Shown piece after piece: positions 9,437 through 60,449 of a stretch of DNA of 64,000 nt; position 1 is the first letter of the stretch, and each line of letters begins with the position of its first letter. The stretch lies in the NCBI GenBank assembly GCA_000165345.1, contig CM000432.1, positions 1-64,000 on the forward strand, in the 5' to 3' direction. The translations under genes were made by a program, and so were the position numbers. The notes below the pieces were generated by a model, which saw nothing but the letters and a program-made list of their open reading frames with translations, was not told the DNA's origin and did not search any database.

Positions 9437-11383
9437 ATGGGTGCTGAAATAAGTAATTGTCAATTCACAAAATTAGGTGATGCATGCTATTCACCATTTT
9501 CAATGATAAATAACACATTAAGTGAAGCTGCTGCAAATAATTTTGTCTTAAATCTTGAAAAGTCTAAATTCAAATCAGAAAATAATCAATATTGGCTTTC
9601 ATGTATGGTTGGTTCAGTGCCATATAATGGAACTTTAGAATGTGATGTTGAAAATTATGCAACAATCATCTGTGGAAATAGTAAGTTATACAATTTATTT
9701 TAAATTTGTTGTTAAGTTATTTACTCTTATTATTCATTTTAAAGAAAGAATGAGATTTAGACACAGAGAAAATTGTCTTTTTGGATTCCAATTTAGAAAA
9801 AATGAAACTATTGTTTTTGATGTAAGTAAAGAAAATAAAAAACATCACCAAATTCAAAATATAATTCTCTTAAAATGTTTAAATTATAGAATAGAGATCT
9901 TCAGAATCCTTTGTTAGCTTTCCCTCTTCCAACGAATCAATTGGCTGTTGCAACTCAATTTTATGATGAAAATTTCCAAGAGAAATGGGTTTTAAGAAGT
10001 GGCTTTTCAGGTAAGTCTTATGTATATTTCAAAATAGATTTTATCAAAACTATAATTATAGGTTATGTTCCAAATCTCGGACTTGTATTAGATTCAACTA
10101 TTCTTCATCCAGAGAATATTAAAACTCCTTATGATCAACTTAACAAAAATGATGCTAACGATAAAGAAACTGTTGTTTCTGATGCTAACGATAAAGAAAC
10201 TGATGTTTCTGATACTAATGAAGAACAGGCGAGCAATGAATATTTAATTCCGGTAGAGCAGAATAAAATTGAAAATGGAGGGACATTATCATTCAATATC
10301 ACTATTGGCAACTTTAAAAATGACCTTTTTCTTATAATAAGCGATAAAGATAAAAAGCAAATGATCAATCTGGAGTTAAGTAAATGCTGTGGCAAACTTA
10401 TTGACTCAATAAACGAAAATTATGATAGATTTTCATATCCAGAGGAATTAATGGCAAGTAATGCAATAGATTTAAACTTGACGTGGCAATCATCAATATA
10501 CGCCTTGAAAACAAAATCTTCCGATACACCTTTAGCAATAATTCCAATAGAAAATAAAAGCATTCCCTATCAAGCTGTTTTGCTGAACTCTTCAACAAGA
10601 GAAGAATTAAAAACAAACTGGAGTTACACTACAGGAGTCAAAAATCTAAGTTCTGTTTCGTGCACAATCAATGCATTAGAAGGTAGATGCAAAAGTTCAA
10701 GTGTTACAGTCACAAAAATGGTTAATCCAAACATAGAATTTTTGAGATTTGGCTTCCTGTTTTCTAAAGATACTTTGGCTCCTTTCGAAATGACCATTTC
10801 TCAAAACTCTAATAATTTGGCAACTTTACAAATATCATCAAATGTCATTAAAGTTCAATCTAGTGATTCAGAGGAAATAACTCTCAAAAAAGAATTTACT
10901 ACTGGAGAATGGGTTTCCGGAGATATTTTTATTATTTCAGATGATATTCATAATGTAATTGAAGAAGATAGCAGTATTTCATGTAAAAACTATAATGATT
11001 CGTGTTATAGTACACAAAATAGTCAGGACTGGATGGGTATAGTTAGTGAAAAATCTATTCTTAGATATGCGTACTTGAAGAAGCAGGCTGTGGAAAATAA
11101 AGTCAAAACAGATACAAACACTGAAGCTGATTCATCATCGTCTAGCTCAAAAACTCAGTATTACCTTTATATCTCATTTAAAAATTGTATTATTGCTAAA
11201 CTTAATATAAACTCTAATTCTTTTAACAAAGTTTCAGTTTCAAACAGACAAGGCTCAAGCAATTTAGTCTATTGGAGATTGAAAGGTGGTGTCTCCACCT
11301 CTATTAATATTCCCGATAGCTATCTGGATAATCTCAAAACAGATATTCCAAAAGAAATTGAGGCAAACACAAATAAAAACTAG
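9437..11383 (+). CDS. subtelomeric family protein B, 4 exons: join(9437..9680,9745..9821,9890..10010,10062..11383). It starts MGAEIS (N-myristoylation-type motif) and its C-terminal domain is paralogous to gene A.
   Basis: There are three GTAAGT donors, at 9681, 9822 and 10011, with AG acceptors at 9743-9744, 9888-9889 and 10060-10061. The introns are 64, 68 and 51 nt. The phases are consistent (1, 0, 1) and link three ORF-track fragments (9437.., 9642.., 9911..) into one reading frame. A 33-bp tandem duplication (NDANDKET x2) lies at 10147-10212. Confidence 0.6.
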
Positions 11384-11637
11384 TTATCAGATTCTAATAA
11401 CAAAATAATAATAAATTTATCTGTAGTAATGTAAATTATTATTTATTTAAAATAATGCTGATATCAAAAATATTGATTATGTTACCAACTAATCCAATTA
11501 ATTTTTTTATCCCGATATTATACATGAATTTAGCAACGTCTCGTCTCGCATGTAAATCGAGAATTTGTATTTTATGGAAATTTAATCCACAATATATTCT
11601 TGAGAAGGTTTGCTCTTCGGGTGTTAAATTAAATTAA

Positions 11638-13671
11638 ATGACTGAAAATTTACAAGAAGGTTCCTTGAATTTCGAATTGCCAAAATTTCAAATAGAAGTT
11701 GGGTTTTGGAAGGCTGCTAGTACTCTTAAATACGATGTTATTAAATCCAGTGAGGATTCGTTTGATATACTTGGTTTTTACAATCAAGAAACAAATATTA
11801 TTCGAATTAGACAAGAGTCTTTGAATTCGAAAAATAAAGAGTATTTAGGTAAAGTTTCAAATTAATATTTCTAACTTAATTTTTTTTTAAATTTCATTTT
11901 TTCGAAAAATTTTTTAGAATACAATAATTCCGTGATTGGAAAGTTGAGTTTAGTCAACTCCATGTCAGCTATCATTAATTTTGGTAATATTGATCATGGC
12001 TGTGACTCCTACCTGGAATCTGCAGTTGATAATGCAATGATGTGGATTAATAATAGTTCTAACCATGAAAAATATCCATTTACTTTCAAATTATGCATTT
12101 ATTTTGATTTTAAAACCCAAATAGCTTATTATAGTGCTTTTTTTCCTAATGTAAACACTAATTTCAACATTAAGACTGACAAACAATCTGAGCTGGGAAT
12201 TGAAATTAAATCAAATTTGCCCGAATATTCTGGTTCGTATATAGATTTAAGCAGCATTAATAAAAACTCAAATTCACTAGCAGTTCTTAAAACATTAAAA
12301 GATAGAGTGGAGGGAAAAATTGGCAATTTTAATGATGAAACAAGCATTGAAAAAAAAGAAAGATTTGATTGCCCATGGTTTTTTTCAACATTACTTACCA
12401 TTATACTTTTTAAAGACAAGTATAAGAATTTACTCAAAACCAATGAAATTATAAAGCTTTTGAAAGAATCAGGTTCGAATGGGAATTTTAAATTTGATTC
12501 GAGAAGCTGTTTTATTTCAAATAAGCATGTTAAAAATGTGCTTGCTATTAGCGATAAAGAAATGAAAGAATTACAATCTGAACACATTCTACCATTTGAT
12601 TTGAAAAATTACTTAAGTCCGCATGAACTCCAACAGAGATTGAGCACAATGAATATTGACTTAATTAAGTGGAGGCTAATACCCAATTTCGAACAGATTC
12701 ACTTTAAGAATTTGAAATTCTTGATAGTAGGTAGTGGTACATTAGGTTGTAGTGTTGCTAGAAATCTTATTGGATGGGGCATACGAAATTTTAAATTCAT
12801 TGATCACTCTAAAGTCAGCTTAAACAATCCAATGAGGCAGTGCTTATTTACATTGGAAGATGTCAAAAATAAGAAAAATAAGGCCATAGCTGCGGTTGAG
12901 AGACTACGATATGTTTGCCCAGATATTCATGCAGAAGGAATCGACTTTGAAATTCCAATACTTGGTGATTCAACATTAAGTCTTGAACAGTTTTTGAAGT
13001 CAGTTAATGAAACAAAAGATAACATAATTGATTCTGATGTGGTAATGTTACTTACAGATAACAAAGAATCAAGATGGCTACCTACAGTCCTTATTGGGCT
13101 AATCAACCGCTATTATAATAGAAGGAGGCCAATATTATGCATCACAGTTGGATTAGGATTTGATTCATTTATTGTAGTCAGAAATACATTCACAGAAACG
13201 GATTATTCTAGTTCTGGGTGCTACTTTTGTGGAGATTTTTCAATTAATTCAAAAAATAATACATTAGATATTCCAGTTGATCAACAATGCTCTGTTGTTA
13301 GAATGGGGGCAAGCTACTTTGCATCTTCAATTGCAGTTGAATTAATTATGAATCTATCTCAGCATCCATTGACATGGAATGCTCCTCATTTAAGTAATGA
13401 ATCTAATAAATCTGATGAAAATAAAAGCCTTCTAGGCACAACTCCACAATGTATTAGAGGGTTTTTAGCTGATTTTTCATTCTGTACTGATCCTATTCAG
13501 AGGAATAAATGTTGTATTGCTTGCTCAGACAAACTAATTGATAAAATTCATAAAGATGAAGTTAATACATTAAGCGAAATTTTTATCAACCCTCGAAAGG
13601 TTGAATCAATTTCTGGATTAACCAATTTTAAATCTGAAATGGAGAAATCAATAACAGAAAGTTATATCTAA
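11638..13671 (+). CDS. ATG7: ubiquitin-like modifier-activating enzyme ATG7 (E1-like, ThiF family), 2 exons: join(11638..11848,11918..13671)
   Basis: The Rossmann motif VGSGTLGCSVARNLIGWGIRNFKFIDHSKVSLNNPMRQCLF matches the ATG7 signature LLLGAGTLGC..R.L.GWGV....VD...VS.SNP.RQ. SRWLP, GFDSF, GCYFCGD, LDQQCSVVR and CCIACS are also conserved. The 69-nt intron has donor GT at 11849 and acceptor AG at 11916-11917, and is phase 1. Confidence 0.85.
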
Positions 13672-13730: not shown

Positions 13731-16700
13731 CTATTTATTCTTTCTTTGTGATAGAGATTTTGATTTTTCTTGCCTATTATTTTGTACACTCATATTTTTG
13801 CCATTTCTAGATTGAAATGTAAAGTCTTTCACTTCGGATTCGCCATCAATTATATACTTAGATCCTACCATACTAGTATGATTATATCTCTTCGATGATT
13901 CTATGGAAAGCCCCTCATTATACCATTTCATGAAATTCCTTTCAACTTCTTCAGCCGAAATGATTGAAGTCCCTGCAATCGGAAGAATATCTTCAAACTG
14001 CTTTCGAATCTTAATATATCTTGCATGATCAAATTCGTGATCAAGTCTCCCATCCAAAGGATCCCATCTCGGTGGAAGAATTAACTCATTTAATCTCTTC
14101 ATTTCAAGTAACTCTTTAACATCAGGCCTTACAGGGATATTAAACCCGAATACTTTATCATATATTCCATCATTATTAAATTCTTTAAGTTTCTTATTTC
14201 TTTCTTTTCTAATTTCTTTAGCTACCATTCTTGCATCTATTATTCTTAATCTAAATTCTTCATCATCTGGATATACCATTGGCAATGCATCTGGAAATAG
14301 TAATTTAAAATTTTTACTTTGTACTTTATTCTCTTTTGAATTTGAACATCTAATATCCGAAAGAAATTTAAACAAATCATCTGATGCAGTTTTTAATACT
14401 AAATTAAAAAATAAAATTATAGTTAATTATTTAAATGTATTTTTAAGTCAAACTTACGTGTTGATTCTCCAAATTGTTGAGAAGAAAATATTACCCTAGC
14501 TCCTTTAGCTCTAAATTGGGAATTCTTTACGGCTGATTCAATTCCAAGAATTCTTATTGTATTCATAACACATTTTCTTACTTCTCCCAGTAGCTCAGTT
14601 TCATTTTCAACAGGAATATCAGAACTTGATCTATAACCTTTAATCTTTGGAATTAAGTACCTCAAGGTTTGTCCTTGTGGTTCATAAAAACCAGCTGAAT
14701 AAAGGGTTTTACCGATATCTTTTGCCTCACAATCGAAGATGTTTCCTTGTTCGATTAAATAAAGCATCTGTGCAGCAGCTTCTTCAGGAAAAGGTGATTT
14801 AAGAAGTCCTAGCATGAAATTGGTTTGTTCATTATCACCAAGTTTGTGTTTGTAATAAAGAGACAATCCATCATTAGATTCTTTTGCATCCAAAATCTGC
14901 TCTTTATCGCCATATAATTGTTTATGCTTGTTATATTGATGAATTAAAAAAAATGTATCAACAAATACTTGTTGAATCATAAAAAAAGCTGTTCCAATAT
15001 GAAATGTCATAATTGTAATCTCAATAATAAATTCAAATTTTGGATAATAACTATAAAAGCAAAGTAAACAAGGAATAAATATTAATGTGAAACCGGAAAT
15101 TATTGTATTAATATTTAAACTTGTAGAAAATATCCACCAGGGCTTATCCATTCCATTCTTTTTACTACTATCACTGTCATCAACTGGAGAAATAATACTT
15201 TCAAAGAATACTAGTATGGAGTAAATTGAAAGTACAAAGAGTATTAAATATCTGGCAAACACATAATTCAGATTTAGAACATTAATTATTCCAGAGATAA
15301 TGTAAAATCGAACTGATTCCCAATATAAAACTGAAATTTTATAACCAGAAAAAAGAAAACTGCTACTAATTGTATACAATTGATTTTGTCTGATAATTTT
15401 TTTACGAATTACAATACCAGAAATTATATTTATGAGTGGAAACATTGTACAATAATAAATATATCCAATAAGTGCATCGCTATTAAGTGTTTTACAAGGT
15501 AACAAGTAGCATTGTGATTGGACTGTACCAAAACCTGGAATATTTGTACATGTCATAGAAACTATAATAGACCAAGAAACTGTTGAATAAATAAGTGTCA
15601 AATAGACTTGAGAAGTACAAATAAATCTGTATGTAGACTTTTCCGTTTGATCCTTAAGTATTTTATTAAATTTTTCTAATCTTGCGGATGATTCCATAAC
15701 TTTCATCCTGTTTAACTCGGTTTTTGTATCATTTTCTTTATATATTTTGTTTACATCGATTATATGTTTAATAGTAAACGTAATAAATAAGATTGCAATA
15801 CCAAGAATTGGTACTGAATTAGCAATAAACAAATCTGCATTTGCATCAGTTAAATTTACTTGGCCAACTGATTGCATGATAATTGGAAATAACTTAAAGA
15901 GGCATTTTGACGGAAAAATCCCCAATGGGAGCCATAGATTAGGTGATAGAAGTTTTATTATTTTGAGATAATGGATAAAGAATTCATCCATATTTTGAAA
16001 TTCAGAATCCTTATACTTAACAAATATACCATATGTTGTGCTAATGGAAATGAAAAATAGTAAATTCTTAAATTTAGCAATTACTGCAGAATTTCTTCTA
16101 CTTAGTGCTGTATATTTTATAGATAATTCACTTACTCTTGCAATACCATAAGAAATGAGTAATACTAACATAATCATTCCAATAAAAGCCACCAATAACA
16201 AATATTGATTTGGGCATTCAATACATGATTTATCTAATCCATATTCTAATGGGAAGTAGCCGCTTGTGCATGTATTACATAATGGACCAGTATATCCTTC
16301 TTTACATCCTTTGCATTCTGGTAAGCAAGCTTCTTCATGAGGACATTTTATTACTATACCAACATAATTATCGCTGAACCACCAACCTCCATTTTTAAGT
16401 TTTTCGTTAGTAGTACAATAATTGCTATCAAATTTTCCTGGGCAAACATATTTTTGAGAATTCAAAGGACATGAAATACAACTGTTAGTTGACTCTAATT
16501 TAAAAAATCCTGGAAGGCAAATGCATGAATCTAAACTGTACAAGCCGGTATCTCCATATGTACTGGAATTTATTGGACAGTTTACACAAGAATATAAATT
16601 GGTAGTTAACCCCACAGTATTTTCTGGGCAAGGTGTACATTGATTACCATCAAAGTAGTTGCCCTTTTTGCACGGAGTATCTGATGAATTTATGGCATCA

Positions 16701-16789
16701 ATCAGTCCTGAAAGGAAAATTAAGAATAAAGCCTGACTAATTAATGAAAATCTGGCTTTGAATCCATTATTTTTTTTAATCATTTTCAC
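13731..16789 (-). CDS. Cys-rich multi-pass membrane protein of about 1000 aa: signal peptide, TNFR/ephrin-receptor-like cysteine-rich ectodomain, about 9-10 TM helices and a cytosolic tail. Two exons: join(13731..14398,14458..16789).
   Basis: Minus-strand GTAAGT donor at 14457-14452 and acceptor AG at 14400-14399, giving a 59-nt intron. This fuses ORFs 14423..16789 and 13731..14375 in phase. The first ORF has a hydrophobic N-terminus, Cys-x-x-Cys repeats, then multiple hydrophobic helices. Confidence 0.6.
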
Positions 16790-17603: not shown

Positions 17604-18169
17604 ATGAAATTAAATTTATCATTGTTTTTTTTCTGGTTAATTGGAACTTTTACACTAATATTTTTTCAAACTTCAGAATGTATACAGATTAACAGTATTA
17701 ATTTATCTTCTAATAGAACTATTTCCCACAACCAAAAATTAGAAGAAATTAAAGAACACTTAATAACAAATGCTACAAATAATTCCACAGAAATAAATGA
17801 AGAGGTAAGATTTAAATTCATTAATTTTATTTTTCCAAAATTTCATTTTTTAGGTGCTGGATAATACTATAGAAGAGCTTACTGACCTTTCTAATGAAAT
17901 TGAAATGAAGCTTAAAGAATTAAAGAAAAAAGAATTAATGTAAGTTTGAATCAATAGTCGGTATATTTAGTTAATTTTCTAATTTAATTTCTAATAGAAT
18001 GGATGTTGATAAGAAAAATATTGGCGTATTTGCAAGCATCACAATGATTGCTCTTGTTTTATTATTTTACCTTGGTGTGGCACATATGGAAGACGCATTG
18101 AAAGATGCAAGTATTCTTAATGGTGATATCGTTTCACCTCAAAATGTAATATTTGACCCAAGGTGGTAA
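17604..18169 (+). CDS. hypothetical small membrane protein of about 155 aa with an N-terminal signal/TM segment, a coiled-coil middle and a C-terminal TM. Three exons: join(17604..17804,17854..17939,17998..18169).
   Basis: Donors GTAAGA at 17805 and GTAAGT at 17940. Acceptors ttttttag at 17852-17853 and ctaatag at 17996-17997. The introns are 49 and 58 nt and the phases are consistent (0, 2). The stop lies 21 nt before the stop of the convergent eIF2D gene. Confidence 0.5.
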
Positions 18170-18189
18170 TTAAAGAAAATTTAAAGAAT

Positions 18190-23179: not shown

Positions 23180-24105
23180 TTAAGAATAATTGAGTTTTTG
23201 TATTTCCTTCTTTTTATTTTCCCTTATTTGGAATCTATAGAAGTCATTATATGTTTTCTTCTTTTCCTTTTTGTTGATTTGTTTCTTTGTATTAAATCCT
23301 TGCGTGGTTTTGTTGGATTCAAAACTGTGAATAACTGTGCCATCTGGTGCCTTTTGTTTTTTGTTAACAACTTTAATGAACCCATCTTCGTCTGGGATAG
23401 TCGATTCTAACTTTAAGTTCTCTTCCTCTATTTCTCTTTCAATATCATAATTAGTCATATATGAGTCAACCTCTCTTTGAAGCAGAGTCGAGTTTACTCT
23501 TTTATTTGTAATCCTCATAAGAATATTTTTGAACCTTAAATCACTTCTACCTAACAAAAAGTTACTCGAATCATTAATATAAAGCTTTCTAATAGAATCT
23601 TTATTATTAATTATTGAGTCATCCTTTATTTTTTGTATTGAATCTATCTCGTTAAAAACAATATATACCCAAGAATTTTCAGAACCAGTTTCTGAAGTCT
23701 TAATTCCCATCTTATTTCCATTAGAGTCATATTGATTCACCGTTATCTGTATTTTATAAAATATTCGAAATAGTTAATTTAGTGAATTAGGAACTTACCT
23801 CTTTAATAGAACCAAACCTTTCAAAAAGATCAATAATTGAGTCTTTAGTAAGAAAAATAGGCACGTTATAGAGTAATAGACTCTTTTCCTCGTTATTTAT
23901 ATTGAAAATGTCTGAGTTGCCATTTGTATTAGCTTGATTATTAATTCTACCTATTATCTATCATACGAAAAAATGATTAAAATATAAATATTTAAAATGA
24001 AATACATAAACTTACCTCCAAATAAACAGGACTATTTCCATTAAATGGAATGTTGAACTGAACAAGTTCTCCTCGTTTCTGTAACTTTGACTCCAACTTA
24101 TTCAT
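23180..24105 (-). CDS. RRP7: ribosomal RNA-processing protein 7 (RRP7/UTP) homolog, 3 exons: join(23180..23746,23799..23957,24016..24105)
   Basis: C-terminal DEDGFIKVVNKKQK...YNDFYRFQIRENKKKEIQKL matches the RRP7 C-terminal domain (DGF.V..YRFQ.RE.KK). The N-terminal exons encode an RRM-like LLLYNVPIFLTKDSIIDLFERFGSIKE. Minus-strand donors GTAAGT at 24015 and 23798. Acceptors at 23959-23958 and 23748-23747. Introns 58 and 52 nt, all phase 0. The ORF track shows only the last exon. Confidence 0.6.
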
Positions 24106-24377: not shown

Positions 24378-25330
24378 ATGAGCGAATCAACAAATGATCT
24401 AGCATTAAATGATATATTAATTGGAAGCAGCCTAGCAGGATTTGTTGGTAGACTAATACTCCACCCATTTGACACTTTGAAGACCCGAAAGCAAATTCTA
24501 GATAATTTAGAAATTTTTAATTGCAAGAGAGTATTTTTAGGAAAGAATTTATACTCTGGAATTCAAATTAGTCTACTTGGTGGAATTCCAGGAACAATGT
24601 TATATTTTTCGTGCTATGAATATTTAAAGAGGTTAAAGTTCAAATTTATTGAAAATAGGGATTTAACTAACTTTATTTCAGGATTCCTGGCTGAATGTGT
24701 TTCTTGTATAATTTGGGTTCCAGTTGATATTTGCAGAGAAAGAAGTCAATTAGATTATTATTTGAAATCAGTTAATGGAAAGAAGCCATTTTCTTATTCT
24801 GACTCTTTTGGAAAATTCAATCTAAGGGGAATTAGACACTTTTATAAAGGATATATACCAACTGTTGTATCTTTTGGTCTGTTTTCTTCTATTTATTTTG
24901 TGATACTTGAAAGACTCAAAACTAGACAGTTTAAACAGGATCTGAGTGAAAATAAACAACTACTTCTAAGCTCAATAGTTGCAGGTACGCTTAGTAATAG
25001 CAGATATCACAAATTTAAGCACTTAATCACAATAATAATAATATTTTGCTTGTTTTAGGCGCATTAGCATCGGGAATTACTTCACCAATAGATTTAATTA
25101 AAGTGAGACTACAGATAAACCACTCACACGGATATAAGATATACAATTACAATAATTTTTTAAGTGCATCACATGAAATTATGAATAAAGATGGGATATT
25201 GGGGGCATTTAGAGGATCTTTTTATAGAATGCTATTCCATTCTCAAATGACTGCTATTAGTATTTTGATTATTGAAAATTGGAAGAAACTTTGCCAATTT
25301 AAAATCACTGGTGGCGCCAAATGTGTTTAA
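24378..25330 (+). CDS. mitochondrial carrier family (SLC25) protein, 2 exons: join(24378..24984,25059..25330)
   Basis: Carrier signatures HPFDTLKTRKQ and SPIDLIKVRLQ (P-x-D/E-x-x-K/R-x-R/K) are present. Donor GTACGC at 24985 and acceptor ttgttttag at 25057-25058 give a 74-nt intron in phase 1 that joins ORFs 24378..25058 and 25046..25330. Confidence 0.75.
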
Positions 25331-29379: not shown

Positions 29380-29982
29380 CTAACTTTTTAATAGTAATGC
29401 ACAACATTTCTTGTATTTTTTTCCAGAATTGCATCTTGGGCATTTCTTATTTGAGAATTTAGATATCGGATAATTCATTTCATCATCACTATACTTTTCT
29501 TTAGAATCTTCGATGCTATTCTCCATCTCTTCTTCGTCGCTCACTACGTATCTATTGAAAAGCTGTCTTTCTAATTGTTCTAATCTCAAGTCACCAAGTA
29601 TTCTGCGGAAACCTTTAATAAATTACTTTACTTCTTTCGACTTTATTTATTAGTTAAACATACCTGGATTTAAAATTCCATATGCGCTTAATTGATTCCC
29701 ATTCCTTGGATTGGAGGATGTATTAAGAAACATACAAACTATTGTCAAAATAATTACACCTCTATAAAATTAATTAATTAAACAACATTTTTTTTTTGTT
29801 TCAAACATTGTTGCATTGTTATAGTACATTCTCAATGTTACAATACTTGATTACGACAAAGTAATCAAAACTTACGAAGTTCCAAAAAAATAACCAGAAA
29901 GAAAGTATAATGAGAATAAAACCAAGTATTTGAATACTCTACCCTTCAAATACTCAATAATATTGGTATTTTCATCTTCCAT
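29380..29982 (-). CDS. hypothetical small protein of about 145 aa with two N-terminal TM helices and a C-terminal SEC-C-like motif (CPRCNSGKKYKKCC). Three exons: join(29380..29612,29664..29761,29876..29982).
   Basis: ATG at 29982-29980. Minus-strand donors GTAAGT at 29875 and GTATGT at 29663. Acceptors ttaattttatag at 29763-29762 and tattaaag at 29614-29613. Introns 114 and 51 nt, with consistent phases (2, 1). The ORF track shows only the last exon, with a TTG start. Confidence 0.45.
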
Positions 29983-37555: not shown

Positions 37556-38959
37556 TTAAAATATCATTCCTTGGTATGGAGTAAATGAGATAGAAGTGCT
37601 GCTTCCCAATTTAGAATCGCTTCCAGATAGTGTTTCAATCTTACTACTAGAACTAGAGCTTTTTAGGCTTCCAACTTGAAGACCTCTAATTCTTCTACCA
37701 CCTTCACCGGCGCTCAATAGTCCCAAACCAATGGTTTTCCCATCAACAGTGTATTCTTCCTCTTCCTCTCCGAATTTCATTCTATTCATCTCTTTTTTAA
37801 TTTTAGTTTGTTTGAATTTTTCTTTAATTTTTCGAATTCTTTTTCCACCTCTCCTAGATTTTGGAAAATCTTTTGGAATAGGAAGTGGCTTTTTCATAGG
37901 TTTTTGAGGAGGTTCCTGAGCTTTTTCTAAAATATTAAGTATATAGTTTCGATAGTTAACTCCATGATCTGGACTTTTATCTGTACTAGAGAAGTCAATT
38001 CTTGCACATAATCCACATTTTAAAGATACAAGTCTGATTGCCTTCTTCTTATATTTATCTTGAATGTTTCTTACAATATCGCTTTGAGAAATAATGCTTT
38101 GAAGTAATTCTAACCTTACTGGACCAGTAGAAAAGTGACCATTTTTTTTATTGTTTTTTAAGCTTCCAAGTACCATAATGTTTTGTGATGGCATTTCCGC
38201 TAAATTTTTAAGTCCTCCTGAGACACATAAAAGATTAGCAGCAATTTCGGGGCCAATTAATGCAGACAGATTTGGAGTAATAGCCTCTATTTGAAATTGT
38301 AGAAATTCTAGTATTTTTGATTTACTTTCGTTGATTTGATTAACAAAATCAATACATTTTAAAATTGATTCTTTCTTTTCTAAAGTTGGAATGTTTCTTT
38401 TGCTAGTACTTGAAGAAATGGTAATTGTCATAATTGTAGAGTTTGGTAAAATATCATTAAGCTTCACATCTTCAAAGTTTTCATGAGTAATTATCCTTTT
38501 CACAACTTCTAAATAGTCTATCTTGTTTATTATTATACTTGCAAGCTCACCAAAGTGATCCTTATATAAAGCTTTAACACATTCATATTTTTCTGAAACT
38601 TTTGAATCAATTATTCCTACTATATCTATAATTTCTTGAAATGTACCATAAATTTCATTACCAAAATCTTTTAATTGGTAATTTGAATTCATAACATTAG
38701 TTGATGAATCGATCATTTTTCCAAATAATCGGTCATTTAAATTACCGATTTTACTAATAATTTCATCATCACTATATTTCCCATCTTCGGAAATCTGGCC
38801 TTTATTGTTAATATTGCTAGATGCTGAATAATCAAGATCTTCCAAATCTTTCAACAGTAATTCCTGCAATGAAGACTGATATGATTGAAGATAGACGAGA
38901 AGAAAAATACATAAATTAATCAATAATGTGGGATTAAGAACATGAAATTAACTTACCAT
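37556..38959 (-). CDS. PRP31: U4/U6 snRNP protein PRP31 (Nop domain), 2 exons: join(37556..38875,38957..38959). The first exon is the ATG only.
   Basis: Nop domain LSALIGPEIAANLLCVSGGLKNLAEMPSQNIMVLGS...RLVSLKCGLCARID...KPLPIPKDFPKSRRGGKRIRKIKE matches PRP31 (LSALIGP..AAKL...GGL..LAKMPA.NI..LG). ATG at 38959-38957 is followed immediately by GTAAGT. The acceptor caatcatatcag is at 38877-38876 and the intron is 81 nt. The spliced N-terminus MSSLQELLLKDLEDLD parallels human MSLADELLADLEE. Confidence 0.85.
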
Positions 38960-52197: not shown

Positions 52198-55100
52198 ATG
52201 ACAATTTCTAGAAGCAGTTCATCATTAAATGAAGATGGAAAAATCAATCGAAGTAAGATTGTTCCATATATTACAAGAGAGATGAGTATTGCTCAGCTTC
52301 AAGATAAGAAATACCATAGTTTTGTGCAAAATACATTGGCAGATTATCAAGCAAGTGCATTTGATGCTCAGAAAATTGCATTGGAAAAAGATAAAGAGCT
52401 TAAAGAGTTGAGAGATACACAAAATTCAGTTAAGGTTTCGTTAAAGTATTATCAAGAGAAATGCCAGCAGTTAGAAAATGAGCTTAAAGCAACTTCAATG
52501 GGGCTATTATATGGGAGGAAGGAAAAAGAACAAGAGAGAGAAATTGCAAGATTGAGTACTGAAATAACAAGTTTTGAGAAAAAAAAAGAGGAGTTAGAAA
52601 CAAACTTGAGATATTATCAAGATAGAGAAATGTATTTACAGCACGAGTTGGAACTTAAAGAAAATGAATTAAATAAGCTATCTCAAGAATTTGCCACTTT
52701 AACAGAGACATATAATAGTACATATTCGGAATTAGAGAAATGTAAATTTGACTTAAGTACGGAACAGAATAATAATAAAACATTAGAAAATCAATTAAAA
52801 GTAAAGAATGACGAGATTACAAAATATAAAGGAAGTTTAACAACTAAAGAAGCGGAAATTAATAATTTGAAGAATGAAATACAAAAATTGAACTCAATGG
52901 TTGAAATCAATAAATCTGAAATAAATACTATTAGTGAGCAGCTTAAATTAAAACAGAAAGAGTGCTTAGATTATAGTAGTAAGATTCAACAAATAGAATT
53001 GGATATGAGAAAAAACTTGGATGAAAACGAAGTATTAATTAAGGATTTAAATTCACAGATAACTTTGACTAGAAATGACTTGACTCAAAAGGTTGAATTA
53101 ATTAATGAGTTAAACTCTCGAATTTCTACATTAGATTTAAAGCTACAAGAATCGTCAAGAGATATATTGGAAAAAGAAAAAACTATAGGAAAGCTTAAAG
53201 CTGAACAGCAGATTACTAGTTTAGAGGCTGATGGTCTTAAAACGAAGATTCAGATTATTGAACAAGAGAAAACCAATATTGAACAAGAAATTGAAACGAT
53301 ATTGGTAGAAAAGAAAAAAATAGATGAAGAACTTAAAGATACAATTAATAGGAAGAATTCCAAGTTAGATGAAGCTTTAACTTACAGAATTGAATCAGCT
53401 ATAACTGCTGAGAGAGAAATTAATCAACTTAAAGAAAAGAACCAAATAATTGAATTTGAGAAAAAAATGATGGAGGAAAAATTGGAAATTTCTAATAATA
53501 ATATAAAAATAAAAGATGATGAAATTCAACAACTTAAAACTACAATCCAAGATCTTAATCGACAAAATATTAAACTTGAGAATGAGCTTCATTCATTACA
53601 AGAAAGTAGCAGAAGAGAAAGTGTGGAGAATACATTTAGAAGTAGTAGAATTGGCTCAAATATTGTAAGTAGTAAAATCAATGCATCATCTGGGTCTACA
53701 GTTAATACCAGTGAAAATACAATTTCTAGTAATATAGCAACTAGTAATGCTGAAACTGTTGAAAAAGTAGTTAATGCTGATACTTTAGTTGACACATCTA
53801 TTCAAGATTCAGCTGTAAATGCTGCTTCTACAACAGTTAAAATGCCATCATCCAAATCAATTTCAAGTAAAAGTGCAATTTCCTCATTGCCAAAGCCAAA
53901 AGCTAAAAGTGCAGTTAAATCAGCTCCTGCTACTGAAGAGAATAACGGTGATCAAACAATATCTGAACCTGCATCTATATCTGAAGTTAAATCTAAAGCT
54001 GGAAGTAAATCAATGCCAGTTTCAAAATCCAAATCTGTAATTAAAGCTAAATCTCAGGTTGTTGCTAAATCCGATATGGATTCTGGACAAATTGTAAAGG
54101 AAGACAATGAGACCAAGGACAATGAGGATGAAGCGGCCAAGGTTAGAGCTCAGAAAGAAAAGGAGGAAGCAGAAGCAAAAGCTTTAAAAGAGAAGGAAGA
54201 AGCTGAGGCCAAAGCCAAGAAAGAAAAAGAAGAGGCTGAGGCTAAAGCTTTAAAGGAGAAAGAAGAAGCTGAGGCCAAAGCTAAGAAAGAAAAGGAGAAG
54301 GAAGAAGCTGAGGCCAAAGCTAAGAAAGAAAAAGAGGAAGCTGAGGCCAAGGCTAAGAAGGAAAAGGAAGAAGCTGAGGCCAAAGCTTTAAAAGAGAAAG
54401 AAGAAGCTGAGGCTAAAGCCAAGAAAGAAAAGGAGAAGGAAGAAGCTGAGGCCAAGGCAAAGAAAGAAAAAGAGGAGGCTGAGGCTAAAGCTAAAAAGGA
54501 GAAGGAGGAGGCTGAGGCAAAGGCCAAGAAGGAGAAGGAGGAAGCTGAAGCCAAAGCTAAGAAAGAGAAGGAGGAAGCTGAGGCCAAAGCTAAGAAAGAA
54601 AAAGAGGAAGCTGAGGCCAAGGCTAAGAAGGAGAAGGAGGAAGCTGAGGCCAAGGCTAAAAAGGAGAAGGAAGAGGCTGAGGCTAAAGCCAAGAAAGAAA
54701 AGGAGGAGGCTGAGGCTGAGGCTGAGGCAAAGGCAAAGAAAGAAAAGGAGGAGGCTGAGGCAAAGGCCAAGAAGGAGAAGGAAGAAGCTGAGGCCAAAGC
54801 TAAGAAAGAGAAGGAGGAAGCTGAGGCCAAAGCTAAGAAAGAAAAAGAGGAAGCTGAGGCCAAGGCTAAAAAGGAAAAAGAGGAGGCTGAGGCTAAAGCC
54901 AAGAAAGAAAAAGAAGAGGCTGAGGCTAAAGCTAAGAAGGAGAAGGAGGAAGCTGAGGCCAAGGCTAAAAAGGAGAAGGAAGAGGCTGATACAAAAGAGA
55001 AAGAGAAGACAGAAATCAAAGAAAATTCAAAAATAGATTCAGATAGTGAGGAAAACTCTGAATCTAAAGAAAAGAAGTCAACTGGACTACTTGCTAAGAC

Positions 55101-57699
55101 AATAGCAAAAGCTAAGGCAAAATCAAAGTCTAATTCTGTCTTATCAAAGCTTCCTTCTAAAGTTAATAAAGAAACAAGCAAAGCTGAGAATGATTTAGAA
55201 AATGAGATAGAAAAAGATGATGAATCAAATAAAAAAGAAACTAAAAAGGAGGAAGATTCAATAGCAAAGCTTAAAGCAAAAGTACCTGTTAAGCCAAGTC
55301 CTTTATTGAAATCAAAGAGTGAAAAAGAAAAGGAGAAAGAAGAAGATAAAGATGAGGAGAAGAAAGAAAAGGACAAAGAGAAAAAGGAAAAGTTAAAAGA
55401 AAAAGAAGAGGAAGGTAAGGAGAAAAGTAATGAAAAGGATAAAGGAGAAGATAAGGATGAAAAGGATAAATCAAAAAGTAAAATAAAAGACTCTCAGAAA
55501 GAGGAAAAATTAGAAGAAACGGAGAAAAATTCATTAAAGAAAGAGTCCAAAGATGATGAGAAGAAAGAAAAGGAGGATCCAATAGCGAAACTTAAGGCGA
55601 AAGTACCTGTTAAGCCAAGTCCTTTATTGAAATCAAAGAGTGAAAAAGAAAAGGAGAAAGAAGATAAAGATGAGGAGAAGAAAGAAAAGGAGGACAAAGA
55701 GAAAAAGGAAAAGTTAAAAGAAAAAGGAGAGGAAGGCAAGGAAAAGGAGGAAGGTAAAGAAAAGGAGAAAGAGAAAGAAAAGGATGAAAAGGATAAATCA
55801 AAAAGTAAAACAAAAGATTTTGAGAAAGAAAAATTAAAGGAAACTGAAAAGGGCGAAAAAGAAGCCGAAAAAGATTCATCAAAGAAAGAGTCCAAAGATG
55901 AGGAGAAGAAAGAAAAGGAGGATCCAATAGCAAAACTTAAGGCAAAGGTACCTGTTAAGCCAAGTCCTTTATTGAAATCAAAGAGTGAAAAAGAAAAGGA
56001 GAAAGAAGAAGATAAAGATGAGGAGAAGAAAGAAAAGGAGGACAAAGAGAAAAAAGAAAAGTTAAAAGAAAAAGAAGAGGAAGGTAAAGAAAAAGAGAAA
56101 GAAAAGGTCAAAGCTCAAAAGAAAAAAGATGAAAAGGAAGAAAAAGATAAGGACGAAAAAGAAGATGATAAAGAAAAGAGTAAAGAAAGTGAAAATCTTG
56201 AAAAAAAACCAACTATTTCAGAAAAAGTTATAAACCCTGAAGGTAAAATTGATGAGAAGGACTCAGAAAAAGAAACTTTAAATCATAGTAAAACTAAGGA
56301 AATTGCTAAAACAAAGGCTGCAGCTCAACTTAAGGCAGCTATATTAGCAAGAGCATCATCTAAAAAGAATATATCAGCTGATAATAGTGAAGATTCAAAG
56401 TTAAAGAAATCTGAATCTAAGAAAGATATTATCAAAGATGAAGCCAAAGATGAAAGTAAGACAAATAAAGATGGAAAGGATCTCAAAAAAACTTTGAAAG
56501 AAGGTGAGGGTTCAATTTCAAAGGTTAAAGGAAAAGGTAAGGTAAAGACTAAGGCAAAGGCAAAAGAAGCCCCACCTCCAGCTGAAGAATCAAGTTGGTT
56601 CAGTGGTTGGTTTGGAACTTCAGCACCGGAAGAACCTCCCAAAGAAGAGGAGAAAAAAGAAGAGAAAAAAGAGGATGAAACGCCGCCACCACCACCACCA
56701 GCTGAGGAGTCAAGTTGGTTCAGTGGTTGGTTTGGAACCTCAGCACCTGAAGAACCACCTAAGGAGGATCCAGCGAAAAAACCTCCTAAAAAGCATTTAG
56801 TTAAGAAATCATCTTCTGTGAAGAAAGATGATGGCGAAAAGAAAGAAGAAAAGGAGGAAAAGAAGGAGGTGAAGAAAGACGAAAAAGAGGAGAAGAAAGA
56901 TGAAAAAGAGGATAAGAAAGACGAAAAGAAGGAAGGAATAGAGGAGACAAAAGAGAAGAAAGAGGAGAAGAAGGAAGGTGACGAAAAGAAGGATGAAACA
57001 GATAATAAGGAGGTAAAGGAAATTGCTGAAAAGGAAAAAACAGGGGTAGACCCAGAGAAAAAAGCTGTCAAAGCAAAGACAAAATCTAAAGCAAAGGCTA
57101 AAGCTAAGGAAGAGCCACCTCCTGCACCACCAGCAGAAGAATCAAGTTGGTTCAGTGGTTGGTTTGGAGCTTCAGCACCGGAAGAACCTCCTAAAGAAGA
57201 GGAGAAAAAAGAAGAGAAAAAAGAGGATGCACCACCAGCTGAAGAGTCGAGCTGGTTCGGCGGTTGGTTTGGAGCCTCCACACCTGAAGAGCCACCTAAG
57301 GAAGATCCAGCAAAAAGACCTACTCCAAAAGTACATCCGGCAAAAAAATCATCCTCCGTGAAGAAGGATAATGATGAAAAGAAAGAAGAAAAGGAGGAAA
57401 AGAAGGAGGAGAAAAAAGAGGAAAAGAAGGAGGAGAAGAAAGAGGAAAAGGAGGAAAAGAAAGAGGACGATGAAAAAGAAAAAAAAGTAGTAAAAGCTAA
57501 AACAAAAACAAAAGCAAAAGCAAAAGCCAAGGCTAAGGAAGAGCCACCTCCTGCACCACCAGCAGAAGAGTCAAGCTGGTTCAGTGGCTGGTTTGGAGCT
57601 GCTGCACCCGCAGAGCCCGAGCCAGAACCAAATAAAGAAGAGCCAAAGGAGGAACAAAAAACTGAGGAACCTGCTGCAACATCCTGGTGGGGATGGTAA
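52198..57699 (+). CDS. giant coiled-coil / low-complexity protein of 1833 aa. The N-terminal 500 aa is heptad coiled-coil. The rest is Lys/Glu-rich with three distinct tandem-repeat arrays and a Trp-rich C-terminus (TSWWGW).
   Basis: Single uninterrupted ORF. All antisense ORFs (54150..55376, 55494..56111, 56325..57530 and others) are repeat shadows. Confidence 0.75.
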   Translation: MTISRSSSSLNEDGKINRSKIVPYITREMSIAQLQDKKYHSFVQNTLADYQASAFDAQKIALEKDKELKELRDTQNSVKVSLKYYQEKCQQLENELKATSMGLLYGRKEKEQEREIARLSTEITSFEKKKEELETNLRYYQDREMYLQHELELKENELNKLSQEFATLTETYNSTYSELEKCKFDLSTEQNNNKTLENQLKVKNDEITKYKGSLTTKEAEINNLKNEIQKLNSMVEINKSEINTISEQLKLKQKECLDYSSKIQQIELDMRKNLDENEVLIKDLNSQITLTRNDLTQKVELINELNSRISTLDLKLQESSRDILEKEKTIGKLKAEQQITSLEADGLKTKIQIIEQEKTNIEQEIETILVEKKKIDEELKDTINRKNSKLDEALTYRIESAITAEREINQLKEKNQIIEFEKKMMEEKLEISNNNIKIKDDEIQQLKTTIQDLNRQNIKLENELHSLQESSRRESVENTFRSSRIGSNIVSSKINASSGSTVNTSENTISSNIATSNAETVEKVVNADTLVDTSIQDSAVNAASTTVKMPSSKSISSKSAISSLPKPKAKSAVKSAPATEENNGDQTISEPASISEVKSKAGSKSMPVSKSKSVIKAKSQVVAKSDMDSGQIVKEDNETKDNEDEAAKVRAQKEKEEAEAKALKEKEEAEAKAKKEKEEAEAKALKEKEEAEAKAKKEKEKEEAEAKAKKEKEEAEAKAKKEKEEAEAKALKEKEEAEAKAKKEKEKEEAEAKAKKEKEEAEAKAKKEKEEAEAKAKKEKEEAEAKAKKEKEEAEAKAKKEKEEAEAKAKKEKEEAEAKAKKEKEEAEAKAKKEKEEAEAEAEAKAKKEKEEAEAKAKKEKEEAEAKAKKEKEEAEAKAKKEKEEAEAKAKKEKEEAEAKAKKEKEEAEAKAKKEKEEAEAKAKKEKEEADTKEKEKTEIKENSKIDSDSEENSESKEKKSTGLLAKTIAKAKAKSKSNSVLSKLPSKVNKETSKAENDLENEIEKDDESNKKETKKEEDSIAKLKAKVPVKPSPLLKSKSEKEKEKEEDKDEEKKEKDKEKKEKLKEKEEEGKEKSNEKDKGEDKDEKDKSKSKIKDSQKEEKLEETEKNSLKKESKDDEKKEKEDPIAKLKAKVPVKPSPLLKSKSEKEKEKEDKDEEKKEKEDKEKKEKLKEKGEEGKEKEEGKEKEKEKEKDEKDKSKSKTKDFEKEKLKETEKGEKEAEKDSSKKESKDEEKKEKEDPIAKLKAKVPVKPSPLLKSKSEKEKEKEEDKDEEKKEKEDKEKKEKLKEKEEEGKEKEKEKVKAQKKKDEKEEKDKDEKEDDKEKSKESENLEKKPTISEKVINPEGKIDEKDSEKETLNHSKTKEIAKTKAAAQLKAAILARASSKKNISADNSEDSKLKKSESKKDIIKDEAKDESKTNKDGKDLKKTLKEGEGSISKVKGKGKVKTKAKAKEAPPPAEESSWFSGWFGTSAPEEPPKEEEKKEEKKEDETPPPPPPAEESSWFSGWFGTSAPEEPPKEDPAKKPPKKHLVKKSSSVKKDDGEKKEEKEEKKEVKKDEKEEKKDEKEDKKDEKKEGIEETKEKKEEKKEGDEKKDETDNKEVKEIAEKEKTGVDPEKKAVKAKTKSKAKAKAKEEPPPAPPAEESSWFSGWFGASAPEEPPKEEEKKEEKKEDAPPAEESSWFGGWFGASTPEEPPKEDPAKRPTPKVHPAKKSSSVKKDNDEKKEEKEEKKEEKKEEKKEEKKEEKEEKKEDDEKEKKVVKAKTKTKAKAKAKAKEEPPPAPPAEESSWFSGWFGAAAPAEPEPEPNKEEPKEEQKTEEPAATSWWGW
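54150..54990 (+). repeat. about 29 tandem copies of a 39-bp unit encoding KEKEEAEAKAKKE (with KAL/KAK alternation) inside CDS 52198..57699
   Basis: Read directly from the sequence. There is synonymous wobble variation between units (gaa/gag, aaa/aag, gct/gcc), so this is not a sequencing artefact. Confidence 0.9.
55255..56100 (+). repeat. three tandem copies of a 320-345-bp unit (about 110 aa, starting DSIAKLKAKVPVKPSPLLKSKSEKEKEKEEDKDEEKKEK) inside CDS 52198..57699
   Basis: Units begin near 55261, 55581 and 55925 with more than 90% identity. Confidence 0.85.
56570..57620 (+). repeat. five dispersed copies of an aromatic motif module PPAEESSWFSGWFG(A/T)SAPEEPPKE(E/D), separated by KE-rich spacers. 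Four copies form two pairs and the fifth stands alone.
   Basis: Copies begin near 56575, 56695, 57130, 57235 and 57550. Confidence 0.85.
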
Positions 57700-58326: not shown

Positions 58327-58979
58327 ATGGGAGATAACAAAAGAATGACTCTGGTAAGTTTAACAACTATGCTTATTGGCCTTAATTAATTTTTTATTAT
58401 AAATATTTAAAGGAACTCAGAGGCCTCCAAGTATTTACAGACGAGCTTGAAGAAGATAAGCAGGTTGGAATAAAGCTGATTGGTAATAGAAACGACAACT
58501 TTTTGGGTATTATTAGAGGGCCTATAGGAACACCATATGAAGGTGGTATATTCCAACTTGATATTATTGTACCAAAAGAATATCCATACGAGCCTCCAAA
58601 AGTTAAATTCATCACAAGAATTTGGCATCCGAATATTTCTAGTCAAACAGGAGCTATTTGCTTGGATATTTTAAAAGATGCCTGGAGCCCTGCTTTAACT
58701 CTTAGAACAGTAATGCTTTCTATACAAGCATTACTCTCTTCTCCTGAACCAAATGATCCTCAAGATGCATTGGTCGCATCTCTATACAAAAGTGATTACC
58801 AAGAATATATTGAAACGGCCAAAAGTTGGACACAAATGTATGCAAAGCCAACATCAAAGGAAGAAAGGATTAAGAGATTTCTTGATATGGGATTCAACCG
58901 TGAATCTATAATAACAGCACTAGAAAGAAATAATTGGGATGAAAATCTCGCTCTAAATGAGCTATTATTTGAAAACTAA
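58327..58979 (+). CDS. UBE2K: ubiquitin-conjugating enzyme E2 with a C-terminal UBA domain (UBE2K/E2-25K/Ubc1 type), 2 exons: join(58327..58353,58413..58979)
   Basis: The UBC core has HPN plus active-site Cys (FITRIWHPNISSQTGAICLDILKDAWSPALTLRTV). The C-terminal KRFLDMGFNRESIITALERNNWDENLALNELL is a UBA. Exon 1 (MGDNKRMTL) ends at donor GTAAGT at 58354. The acceptor tttaaag is at 58411-58412 and the intron is 59 nt, phase 0. The ORF track shows only 58503.. with a TTG start. Confidence 0.85.
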
Positions 58980-59193
58980 CTTTTTTAACGTATTTTACCT
59001 AACTTTACGTTAATATTCTTAATTACAATTCAGTGTTTTTAAATACCTAAATCAGCTATCAATTACTAAATTATTGCCCACCGAATGCCTTAATATAATT
59101 ACATCTTCCATATTAAATTTTATTTGTTTAGTTCTCTTTCTCATATTTTCCACCTCCCCACATTAAGCATGTATAGCCCATGCATCAATACAA

Positions 59194-59205
59194 GGCGCGC
59201 GCGCC
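59194..59205. promoter_or_regulatory. perfect GC palindrome GGCGCGCGCGCC, preceded by CCATGCATC, upstream of the multi-exon gene at about 59.3 kb
   Basis: A 12-nt all-GC palindrome in AT-rich DNA, adjacent to a TGCAT motif. Confidence 0.35.
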
Positions 59206-59381
59206 AAAGCAGTGTCTTGTGTGATTTTACATGTCAAATTATTGCAATGTTAGTGGTTAAATAAAAAAAATTTAAGAAATTAAAATAAAGTCAATACAAT
59301 CATTAATATTCTATTTACAGAGTAATAAAGGTTTTCTATGTTGGCATTTTTGAATTTGTAAATTTAAAACAAGGGGAAAAA

Positions 59382-60449
59382 GTGTTATCAGTTGGAGTAA
59401 AAGGTTTACATGAAGTCTTTCATTTTGATTTTACTTTTTTTAAATTTTTCTCTAATACTAAAGGTAAGATAAATTTAATCAATCATTTATTATATTTCTT
59501 ACAATTTTTCCAGGTTTTAGCAGAAAATCAGTCAAAAAAAGATGATTCTGAATTACTATATACTAAGGATAATGTACGTTTGAATAATATTTTAATGACC
59601 TCAATCAAAAAAGGCTTTAGATTAATTATATTATAACAGGCAGTTGCTTATATAGATATTCTAAATTTGTAAATGAATTTAAAAGAGTTAGTAGAAATAG
59701 TTTATTATGGCCAAAGTTAACAAAAAATGAAAGTAATGCAAAACTAAAACATCGATTTAATGAGAAATATGCAATGCTTAGTTCCTTTATGGCAATCAAA
59801 AAAATATTACAAATTCAATCAAAATACTCGGCAAACAATGATTATTTCGATACTGTTGTGCTTTTGAGGGTCAATATAGCACTAATGGAAATCACTCTTG
59901 AATCTAAGCTGAATGAAATACCTGAAGATGCTAGAAATAAAGTATTTGAACTGAAAAAGAGAATTATAACAAATAATTATGTATTGAATAAGTATTATCA
60001 AAATCAGTTCAATATTCTAAACCTTGAAAGAAAAAATTTATTCAAGGTTTTTTTACGCTATTTTATTTACCCTGCATATTTAGATCTTTACAGTTATGGA
60101 AATATTATATTATCGAGGTAAGTTGTGCTTAAATATACTCATTCAAGTTGAAATGAATAAATAATTAATAAAATCTGAATATCAATAGGCTTGACCAAAA
60201 ATTACAAAAAAAAGTTGCATATATTTATAAAGATGTTAGCTCATTAAAAAAGACGTTTTTAGGATTATTTGACACTGTAAGTTATTATATATATATATAT
60301 ATATATAATTTAAGTAACCTGATTATATTTTAAACCAAAATTTTCAAAATTTAGTGTAACTGAAAGAAACATAGTATAGCATTATTAAAGTAATTAATTA
60401 TAATTTATTTTTCAAGAGCAAAAAAATGAATAAAACGATAAAACAATAA
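59382..60449 (+). CDS. multi-exon gene of unknown function with a partial model. The main exon is about 59640..60117. Later exons are 60189..60276 and a terminal exon ending at stop 60447-60449 (acceptor at 60416 or 60374). Possible upstream exons are 59382..59463 and 59513..59573/59577.
   Basis: An open frame of about 160 codons runs from 59642 to donor GTAAGT at 60118, with no ATG before 59774. Acceptor tcaatag at 60187-60188 gives an in-phase exon of 88 nt that ends at donor GTAAGT at 60277. The following intron contains (TA)n. Upstream, GTAAGA at 59464 / ccag at 59511-59512 and ttataacag at 59638-59639 look like further splice sites, but the phases could not be fully resolved. Confidence 0.3.
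60287..60307. repeat. (TA)n microsatellite of about 10 units inside an intron
   Basis: Read directly. Confidence 0.8.

Follow-up and report, generated by a model that had tools for sequence, protein, structure and literature searches.

Short GT-AG introns in ten genes at the left end of Cryptosporidium parvum chromosome 4

Results

Genes and introns at the left end of chromosome 4

The DNA analysed here is a 64-kb stretch (CM000432.1, positions 1 to 64,000), called the window below, in which ten protein-coding genes carry short introns. Degenerate CCTAAA telomere repeats were found at bases 46-770 of the window. The sequence was 100% identical to CP029783.1 in all stretches compared, and to the IOWA-ATCC chromosome 4 (CP044419.1) in two of three stretches, with a single indel in the third. 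The telomere repeats, together with the identity to C. parvum chromosome 4 records, show that the window is the left, telomere-proximal end of Cryptosporidium parvum chromosome 4. The GC content within the window was 21-39%.

According to the IOWA-ATCC gene calls, the window contains 27 protein-coding genes, and ten of them (37%) are intron-bearing. The splice sites of all ten were re-derived by hand from the sequence, and the models were then assembled and translated. Eighteen introns were obtained. A first-pass annotation of the same DNA had named the same ten genes with the same intron numbers, giving three or more for the gene near 59 kb, where four are now counted. Missed introns were also sought in the other 17 genes of the window and none were found; each gene range equals 3 × (aa + 1), where aa is the number of amino acids, so that their coding sequences (CDS) are intronless. 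The ten genes and their introns, with lengths in nucleotides (nt), donor and acceptor sequences and phases, are listed below.

Gene B (CPATCC_0017130 / cpbgf_40035), 9437..11383, plus strand: 587 aa, 4 exons; exact match to QOY41890.1; same range in IOWA-ATCC
Gene B intron 1, 9681..9744, plus strand: 64 nt, GTAAGT..AAG, phase 1
Gene B intron 2, 9822..9889, plus strand: 68 nt, GTAAGT..TAG, phase 0
Gene B intron 3, 10011..10061, plus strand: 51 nt, GTAAGT..TAG, phase 1; in frame and stop-free in C. parvum
ATG7, 11638..13671, plus strand: 654 aa, 2 exons; exact match to QOY41891.1
ATG7 intron, 11849..11917, plus strand: 69 nt, GTAAAG..TAG, phase 1
EGF / growth-factor-receptor Cys-rich membrane protein, 13731..16783, minus strand: 997 aa, 2 exons; exact match to QOY41892.1
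EGF-protein intron, 14399..14457, minus strand: 59 nt, GTAAGT..TAG, phase 1
17.6-kb gene, small signal-peptide/transmembrane protein, 17604..18169, plus strand: 152 aa, 3 exons; exact match to QOY41893.1
17.6-kb gene intron 1, 17805..17853, plus strand: 49 nt, GTAAGA..TAG, phase 0
17.6-kb gene intron 2, 17940..17997, plus strand: 58 nt, GTAAGT..TAG, phase 2
RRP7, 23180..24105, minus strand: 271 aa, 3 exons; exact match to QOY41896.1
RRP7 intron 1, 23958..24015, minus strand: 58 nt, GTAAGT..TAG, phase 0
RRP7 intron 2, 23747..23798, minus strand: 52 nt, GTAAGT..CAG, phase 0
Mitochondrial carrier, 24378..25330, plus strand: 292 aa, 2 exons; exact match to QOY41897.1
Mitochondrial-carrier intron, 24985..25058, plus strand: 74 nt, GTACGC..TAG, phase 1
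SAYSvFN-domain protein with a C-terminal SEC-C-like CPRCNSGKKYKKCC motif, 29380..29982, minus strand: 145 aa, 3 exons; exact match to QOY41900.1
SAYSvFN intron 1, 29762..29875, minus strand: 114 nt, GTAAGT..TAG, phase 2
SAYSvFN intron 2, 29613..29663, minus strand: 51 nt, GTATGT..AAG, phase 1
PRP31, 37556..38959, minus strand: 440 aa, first coding exon consisting of the ATG alone; Pfam Nop and Prp31_C; exact match to QOY41903.1
PRP31 intron, 38876..38956, minus strand: 81 nt, GTAAGT..CAG, phase 0, directly after the ATG
UBE2K-type E2 (UBC + UBA), 58327..58979, plus strand: 197 aa, 2 exons; exact match to QOY41909.1
UBE2K intron, 58354..58412, plus strand: 59 nt, GTAAGT..AAG, phase 0
59-kb gene (CPATCC_0017330), 59410..60363, plus strand: 235-aa signal-peptide protein, 5 exons; exact match to QOY41910.1; range as in the IOWA-ATCC call
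59-kb gene intron 1, 59464..59513, plus strand: 50 nt, GTAAGA..CAG, phase 0
59-kb gene intron 2, 59574..59620, plus strand: 47 nt, GTACGT..TAG, phase 0
59-kb gene intron 3, 60118..60188, plus strand: 71 nt, GTAAGT..TAG, phase 2
59-kb gene intron 4, 60277..60354, plus strand: 78 nt, GTAAGT..TAG, phase 0, followed by a 9-nt last exon

Splice sites and composition of the introns

All 18 introns began with GT and ended with AG, as the first-pass annotation had asked to be confirmed. Their lengths ranged from 47 to 114 nt (median 59 nt, mean 64 nt); the earlier range of 49-114 nt was correct at its upper end, while the shortest intron proved to be the 47-nt element at 59574-59620. Donors had been described as nearly all GTAAGT, which was too generous: 12 of the 18 were exactly GTAAGT, and the others were GTAAGA (two), GTAAAG, GTACGC, GTACGT and GTATGT. 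GTA occupied positions +1 to +3 in every donor, G was found at +5 in 17 and T at +7 in 16. The resulting consensus, AG/GTAAGTTT (the slash marks the splice junction), is nearly perfectly complementary to U1 small nuclear RNA (snRNA). Acceptors were TAG in 12 introns, AAG in three and CAG in three. Nine introns were in phase 0, six in phase 1 and three in phase 2. The introns contained 81% A+T, with a GC content of 0.19 compared with 0.30 in the CDS of the same genes. Their 3' portions appeared T-rich by eye, and no branch motif shared among the 18 was seen.

The ten spliced open reading frames (ORFs) were free of internal stops. If retained, every intron except gene B intron 3 (17 of the 18) would introduce a stop or shift the frame.

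These properties resemble those of the intron-poor Cryptosporidium pattern described previously, with very short introns, high A+T and a GTAAGT-type donor (PMC2483917). Published Cryptosporidium introns have a median of 61 nt and 78% A+T with GTAAGT predominant (PMC2483917), and mean lengths of 82-99 nt with a GC content of 22% (PMC2483917, PMC4637869). C. parvum introns have been reported to lack a clear branch-point consensus (PMC2483917), and the introns of Irimia and Roy 2008 (PMC2483917) and Isaza et al. 2015 (PMC4637869) are likewise short, AT-rich and dominated by GTAAGT, with no clear branch-point consensus. The share of GTAAGT was lower in the window, 67% of donors versus 84% in a set of 213 introns from the 2004 annotation. 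Evidently, the introns found later by RNA sequencing (RNA-seq) include weaker donors (GTAAGA, GTAAAG, GTACGY and GTATGT).

Comparison with deposited gene models

The ten spliced proteins were residue-for-residue identical to proteins of C. parvum IOWA-ATCC and IOWA-BGF (QOY41890-QOY41910, CPATCC_0017130 to CPATCC_0017330, cpbgf_40035 to cpbgf_400220). Nine of them matched directly, and the tenth, from the 59-kb gene, matched after its 3' end had been set to the IOWA-ATCC range. These reference models have the same proteins, the same gene ranges and all 18 introns. The introns of the IOWA-ATCC annotation are stated to be 100% supported by RNA-seq (Baptista et al. 2022, PMC8744675).

The only difference from the IOWA-ATCC models concerned the 59-kb gene, which the first-pass annotation had extended to 60449; the deposited end is 60363, and no protein corresponding to the longer model was present in the protein collection. 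The last exon of that longer model, 60417-60449, lies in a stretch for which C. meleagridis shows no in-frame conservation. A version of the gene read through without the last splice was also absent from the collection. An alternative intron 2, with a GTTTGA donor at 59578 and an acceptor at 59639, gave a protein of 230 aa and was rejected, the annotated product having 235 aa.

Other annotations of the same loci differed. The 2004 Iowa II annotation, which was largely ORF-based, covers the same DNA and the same loci. In its records (EAK87xxx / XP_6256xx), ATG7 is shortened from 654 to 569 aa and the EGF protein from 997 to 789 aa, gene B appears as two products of 88 and 497 aa, and PRP31 is a non-ATG 'partial' of 463 aa rather than a protein of 440 aa; UBE2K has 197 aa there too. 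In GCA_031892065.1 and GCA_048859185.1, later annotations of identical or near-identical DNA, four models are too short: those of gene B, the EGF protein, the SAYSvFN protein (109 aa) and the 59-kb gene (115 aa). The 109-aa SAYSvFN product spans the same gene range as the 145-aa model, the comparison being one of product length and not of sequence. In the annotation of the chipmunk genotype, ATG7 is split into two genes and the 17.6-kb gene is truncated to 93 aa. The 2004 Iowa II models and the two later GenBank annotations thus bear out the earlier claim that calling ORFs alone truncates or splits proteins at this locus.

Conservation of intron positions and continuity of protein domains

Syntenic loci were compared in C. 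sp. chipmunk genotype I, C. canis, C. felis, C. ubiquitum and C. meleagridis. Orthologous introns were placed by exact-protein threading and by junction-peptide scoring, which were adopted after a brute-force enumeration of GT-AG combinations. For 17 of the 18 introns, two or three further Cryptosporidium species had an intron at the same CDS position and in the same phase, with conserved exon lengths and variable intron lengths.

In gene B, threading of the orthologous proteins onto their DNA gave a unique solution per species. Intron 1 (CDS nt 244) measured 65, 64 and 63 nt in C. sp. chipmunk genotype I, C. canis and C. felis, respectively, and intron 2 (CDS nt 321) measured 61, 64 and 55 nt. 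The orthologous introns at the position of intron 3 (CDS nt 442) were 59, 68 and 78 nt long. GTAAGT donors were found throughout the four species, and the exon lengths of 244, 77 and 121 nt were identical in all four, while the introns differed in length and contained many indels. If retained, the 59- and 68-nt orthologues of intron 3 would shift the frame. Translation of this intron gives a 17-aa insert that the proteins of the chipmunk genotype, C. canis and C. felis do not have. The frame-breaking orthologues and the insert-free proteins settle gene B intron 3 as an intron.

The orthologous ATG7 introns, located by junction-peptide scoring, were 83, 61 and 117 nt long, and Pfam ATG7_N aligned to residues 11-162 of the spliced protein, spanning the junction at aa 70. 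The EGF-protein intron had orthologues of 63, 63 and 61 nt, each with a GTAAGT donor. The C. canis EGF orthologue (L014 6885-9926 / L013 8831-11872) is annotated as intronless, with 1,013 aa; an in-frame 63-nt GTAAGT...ATAG element at the conserved intron position there probably represents an intron included in the translation. In the 17.6-kb gene, intron 1 had orthologues of 53 nt in C. canis and 62 nt in C. felis, and the orthologues of intron 2 were 59, 56 and 57 nt long. The intron 1 position in C. sp. chipmunk genotype I (L012 ~18125-18173) has a GCAAGT donor, giving a 49-nt GC-AG intron or reflecting a sequencing error.

RRP7 intron 1 corresponded to introns of 62 nt in C. ubiquitum and 56 nt in C. 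felis, and intron 2 to introns of 53 and 51 nt; the sums of the two introns fitted the annotated 270-aa products. Pfam RRM_7 aligned to RRP7 residues 61-145 across the junction at aa 83, in agreement with the earlier claim that splicing restores an RRM-like exon, and the RRP7 C-terminal domain of Pfam matched residues 165-268. The third Mito_carr repeat of the mitochondrial carrier, residues 195-282, aligned to positions 8-93 of the hidden Markov model (HMM) across the junction at aa 202. At the corresponding loci of C. ubiquitum (L016 14690-15573) and C. felis (L017 15327-15641), the alignment to the carrier was full of in-frame stops and no gene is annotated. The carrier, intact in C. parvum, looks like a case of lineage-specific decay or loss in these two species.

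The SAYSvFN protein had previously been labelled a SEC-C-motif protein. A SEC-C-like motif is indeed present at its C-terminus, while its domain identity according to Pfam is SAYSvFN. Threading placed the orthologues of intron 1 (CDS nt 107) at 118 nt in C. ubiquitum and 123 nt in C. felis, and those of intron 2 (CDS nt 205) at 52 and 42 nt. Residues 25-86 aligned to HMM positions 9-70 without gaps over both junctions.

For PRP31, an exon consisting of the ATG was also found in C. ubiquitum (ATG/GTAAGT...AG/TCT TCG TTA CAG) and C. felis (ATG/GTAGGT...AG/GCC TCA CTA CAA). An in-frame stop lies just upstream of the acceptor in both species, and the first spliced-in sequence, (S/A)SLQEL, is conserved in them. 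Human PRP31 starts with MSLADELL. The 27-nt exon 1 of UBE2K and its GTAAGT donor were conserved in C. meleagridis, C. canis and C. felis, with intron lengths of 63, 63 and 94 nt, respectively, calculated as gene range minus CDS. The best PDB matches of the UBE2K protein included human UBE2K (E = 3e-55).

In the 59-kb gene, intron 1 (CDS nt 54) was placed by threading at 48 nt in C. meleagridis, 46 nt in C. canis and 74 nt in C. felis. In the same three species, intron 2 measured 47, 44 and 47 nt and intron 3 measured 71, 50 and 77 nt, respectively. Intron 4 is part of the annotated gene in both C. parvum and C. meleagridis, measuring 84 nt in the latter; C. canis (72 nt, followed by Cys-Ser-stop) and C. 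felis (68 nt, followed by Cys-Ala-Lys-stop) have candidate counterparts. The last micro-exon (60355-60363, TGT AAC TGA) begins with Cys and reads Cys-Asn-stop in both C. parvum and C. meleagridis. The candidate Cys-first last exons lie at L018 ~6908-6916 and L019 ~6981-6992, where the annotated models of C. canis and C. felis continue past the donor. The conserved cysteine lies at the C-terminus of a secreted protein.

Assessment of the intron models

We conclude with great confidence that the 18 short introns in the ten genes are ordinary U2-type GT-AG spliceosomal introns, the splicing of which gives the annotated full-length proteins. The splice sites, the restoration of frame, the protein identity, the conservation of position and phase and the continuity of domains are observed; we infer, or take from the literature, that the introns are removed from transcripts.

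A number of points weigh against this conclusion or limit it at individual sites. GTAAGT was not enriched in the window, with 29 copies on both strands versus about 42 expected from composition; with 12 of them serving as donors, GTAAGT alone is not diagnostic. Brute-force enumeration for gene B alone gave 3,237 GT-AG combinations with an open frame as long as the annotated one, which means that introns cannot be recognised from phase and length by themselves. The ten frames did reconnect in phase, as the first-pass annotation had argued, and such reconnection is weak evidence when taken alone. Splicing in vivo rests on the general statement of the annotation paper and not on junction counts for each site. 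The mitochondrial-carrier intron is the one intron of the 18 without a cross-species comparison, its orthologue having decayed in C. ubiquitum and C. felis. In PRP31, a second in-frame AG (CAG) lies 12 nt downstream of the acceptor at 38876 (window 38865-38864, minus strand) and is a potential alternative; conservation of the SSLQ residues in the other species favours the upstream acceptor. Alignments of full-length PRP31 to PDB homologues began at residue 81-90, short of the junction, and its N-terminal 59 aa gave no hits against PDB sequences even at E = 10. Alignments to human UBE2K began at residue 16, also short of the junction, and the extension of UBE2K helix 1 across it is suggested by the alignment register. 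The earlier claim that splicing restores the N-terminus of PRP31 and helix 1 of UBE2K is backed indirectly, by alignment register and by first exons conserved within the genus. Downstream of intron 4, the last exon of the 59-kb gene has only two codons; the site is read through in the C. canis and C. felis annotations, and this intron is the least secure of the 18.

The abundance of possible GT-AG combinations and the lack of GTAAGT enrichment would fit an explanation in which the breaks between ORFs are assembly frameshifts or decaying pseudogenes, and in which the GT-AG pairs that mend them occur by chance in AT-rich DNA. We regard this explanation as having almost no chance of being correct. 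The same sequence is present in independent assemblies, domain alignments continue over the junctions, and the spliced proteins match exactly an annotation curated with RNA-seq. The finding that effectively refutes it is that intron position and phase are identical in up to four species in which intron lengths differ. The case for real introns accordingly comes from protein identity, domain continuity and the comparative evidence, not from the abundance of GTAAGT or from reconnection in phase.

Another explanation is that some of the introns are retained or alternatively spliced, giving two forms of the protein. The candidates were gene B intron 3, intron 4 of the 59-kb gene (where read-through adds about 18 aa), the pair of PRP31 acceptors and a SAYSvFN transcript in which exon 2 is skipped. 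With 51 nt and no stop, gene B intron 3 can be read in frame and is translated in older records (the 497-aa model and C. hominis P0081), a 109-aa SAYSvFN model lacking exon 2 occurs in several annotations, and the site of 59-kb intron 4 is read through in two species as described above. However, all of these alternative forms come from automatic or ORF-based annotations and not from transcript evidence, and the gene B orthologues of intron 3 break the frame. The C. hominis 109-aa SAYSvFN model (P0092) lacks the 36 residues of exon 2 (29664-29761), including the SAYxxxN motif after which the domain is named; skipping of this exon deletes the conserved core of the domain. Baptista et al. (PMC8744675) reported only three putative alternatively spliced genes, none of which is in the window. 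Two-form expression of these genes is improbable.

Other features of the window

About 45 nt of GC-rich, non-telomeric sequence precedes the telomere repeats at the start of the window. It contains GCATGC and GGATCC sites and resembles a linker or vector remnant.

A non-coding block at about 37100-37260 on the minus strand (ACCGGT...CCGGTATAAAA...GTCGCAAG...TAAGAGGGAAAAA...GATAAATAGATA) was conserved in C. ubiquitum and C. felis, unlike the intergenic sequence around it. The block lies upstream of an SNF2-family gene (33247-37083) and had no Rfam match; it is likely to be a promoter or another regulatory element. An unused GTAAGT at 37362 (minus strand), also upstream of the SNF2 gene, was considered as an intron donor and rejected, as it was not conserved in C. 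ubiquitum/C. felis. Rfam and tRNA scans of the whole window gave no matches.

Intergenic GCATGC repeats and GGCGCC / GGCGCGCGCGCC (E2F-like) motifs were seen at 17000-17020, 17160-17185, 40025-40032 and 59150-59205, positions that suggest candidate upstream promoter elements. The gene at 52198-57699, encoding 1,833 aa, had an atypical composition, with GC up to 0.39 and a strong purine and A skew. It contains internal repeats, including a 640-nt self-match that is 84% identical, and its product has 1,804 aa in another isolate. Long antisense ORFs across this gene look like compositional artefacts.

Discussion

Recognition of the introns

The near-invariant GTAAGT(T) donor would allow extended pairing with U1 snRNA. 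Introns as short as these may be recognised by intron definition involving U1 pairing, as the literature and the donor sequence suggest. By splicing, the fragments of each ORF are joined into the full-length proteins of the IOWA-ATCC and IOWA-BGF annotations.

Intron density

The density of introns in the window was 0.28 per kb versus 0.15 per kb genome-wide, about 1.9 times the genome mean. The 2004 Iowa II annotation recorded introns in 4.3% of genes, with 237 introns in total, and the 2015 re-annotation in 10.8% of genes, with 688 introns of mean length 99 nt and 22% GC (PMC4637869). The IOWA-ATCC annotation has 1,364 CDS introns in 3,892 genes and 9.12 Mb, which corresponds to 0.15 per kb, with a mean length of 87 nt (PMC13125899 Table S1). 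The frequency in the window had been called higher than is often assumed for Cryptosporidium; this holds against the figure of 2004, but not against those of the 2015 and IOWA-ATCC annotations.

The local density, with introns in 10 of 27 genes and 18 introns in 64 kb, could represent a real regional enrichment near the chromosome end instead of sampling. A Poisson test gave P = 0.0096 for at least 18 introns. However, this test overstates the significance, since introns tend to occur together in the same gene (1.8 per intron-bearing gene here). If about 22% of genes carry introns, the per-gene P is about 0.055. The value of 22% is our own estimate, obtained by dividing 1,364 introns by 1.6 introns per intron-bearing gene, over 3,892 genes, where 1.6 comes from the 2015 table (PMC4637869), which gives 2.6 exons for each intron-bearing gene. 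The window was also picked post hoc for looking intron-rich, and its intron-bearing genes are mostly conserved housekeeping genes rather than members of a subtelomeric family. Regional enrichment is doubtful as an explanation and, given the clustering and the post-hoc selection, the intron density of the window is unremarkable. We consider it unlikely that the end of the left arm of chromosome 4 is truly enriched in intron-bearing genes, at 37% of genes and about twice the genome-wide intron density.

Significance

The ten corrected models are already the current reference models and contain nothing new biologically, and the revised intron content of C. parvum appeared in publications of 2015 and 2022. 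Their remaining value is curatorial. From the 2004 Iowa II annotation, users obtain ATG7, the EGF protein and gene B in shortened or divided form, together with a partial PRP31. The same class of error occurs in related species: the EGF intron is probably translated in the C. canis annotation, the C. canis and C. felis models of the 59-kb gene run past the final splice site, and the chipmunk-genotype models of ATG7 and the 17.6-kb gene are split and truncated, respectively. If the chromosome end were in fact enriched in intron-bearing genes, this would hint at slower intron loss, or at a different expression or recombination regime near the telomere, despite massive intron loss across the genome.

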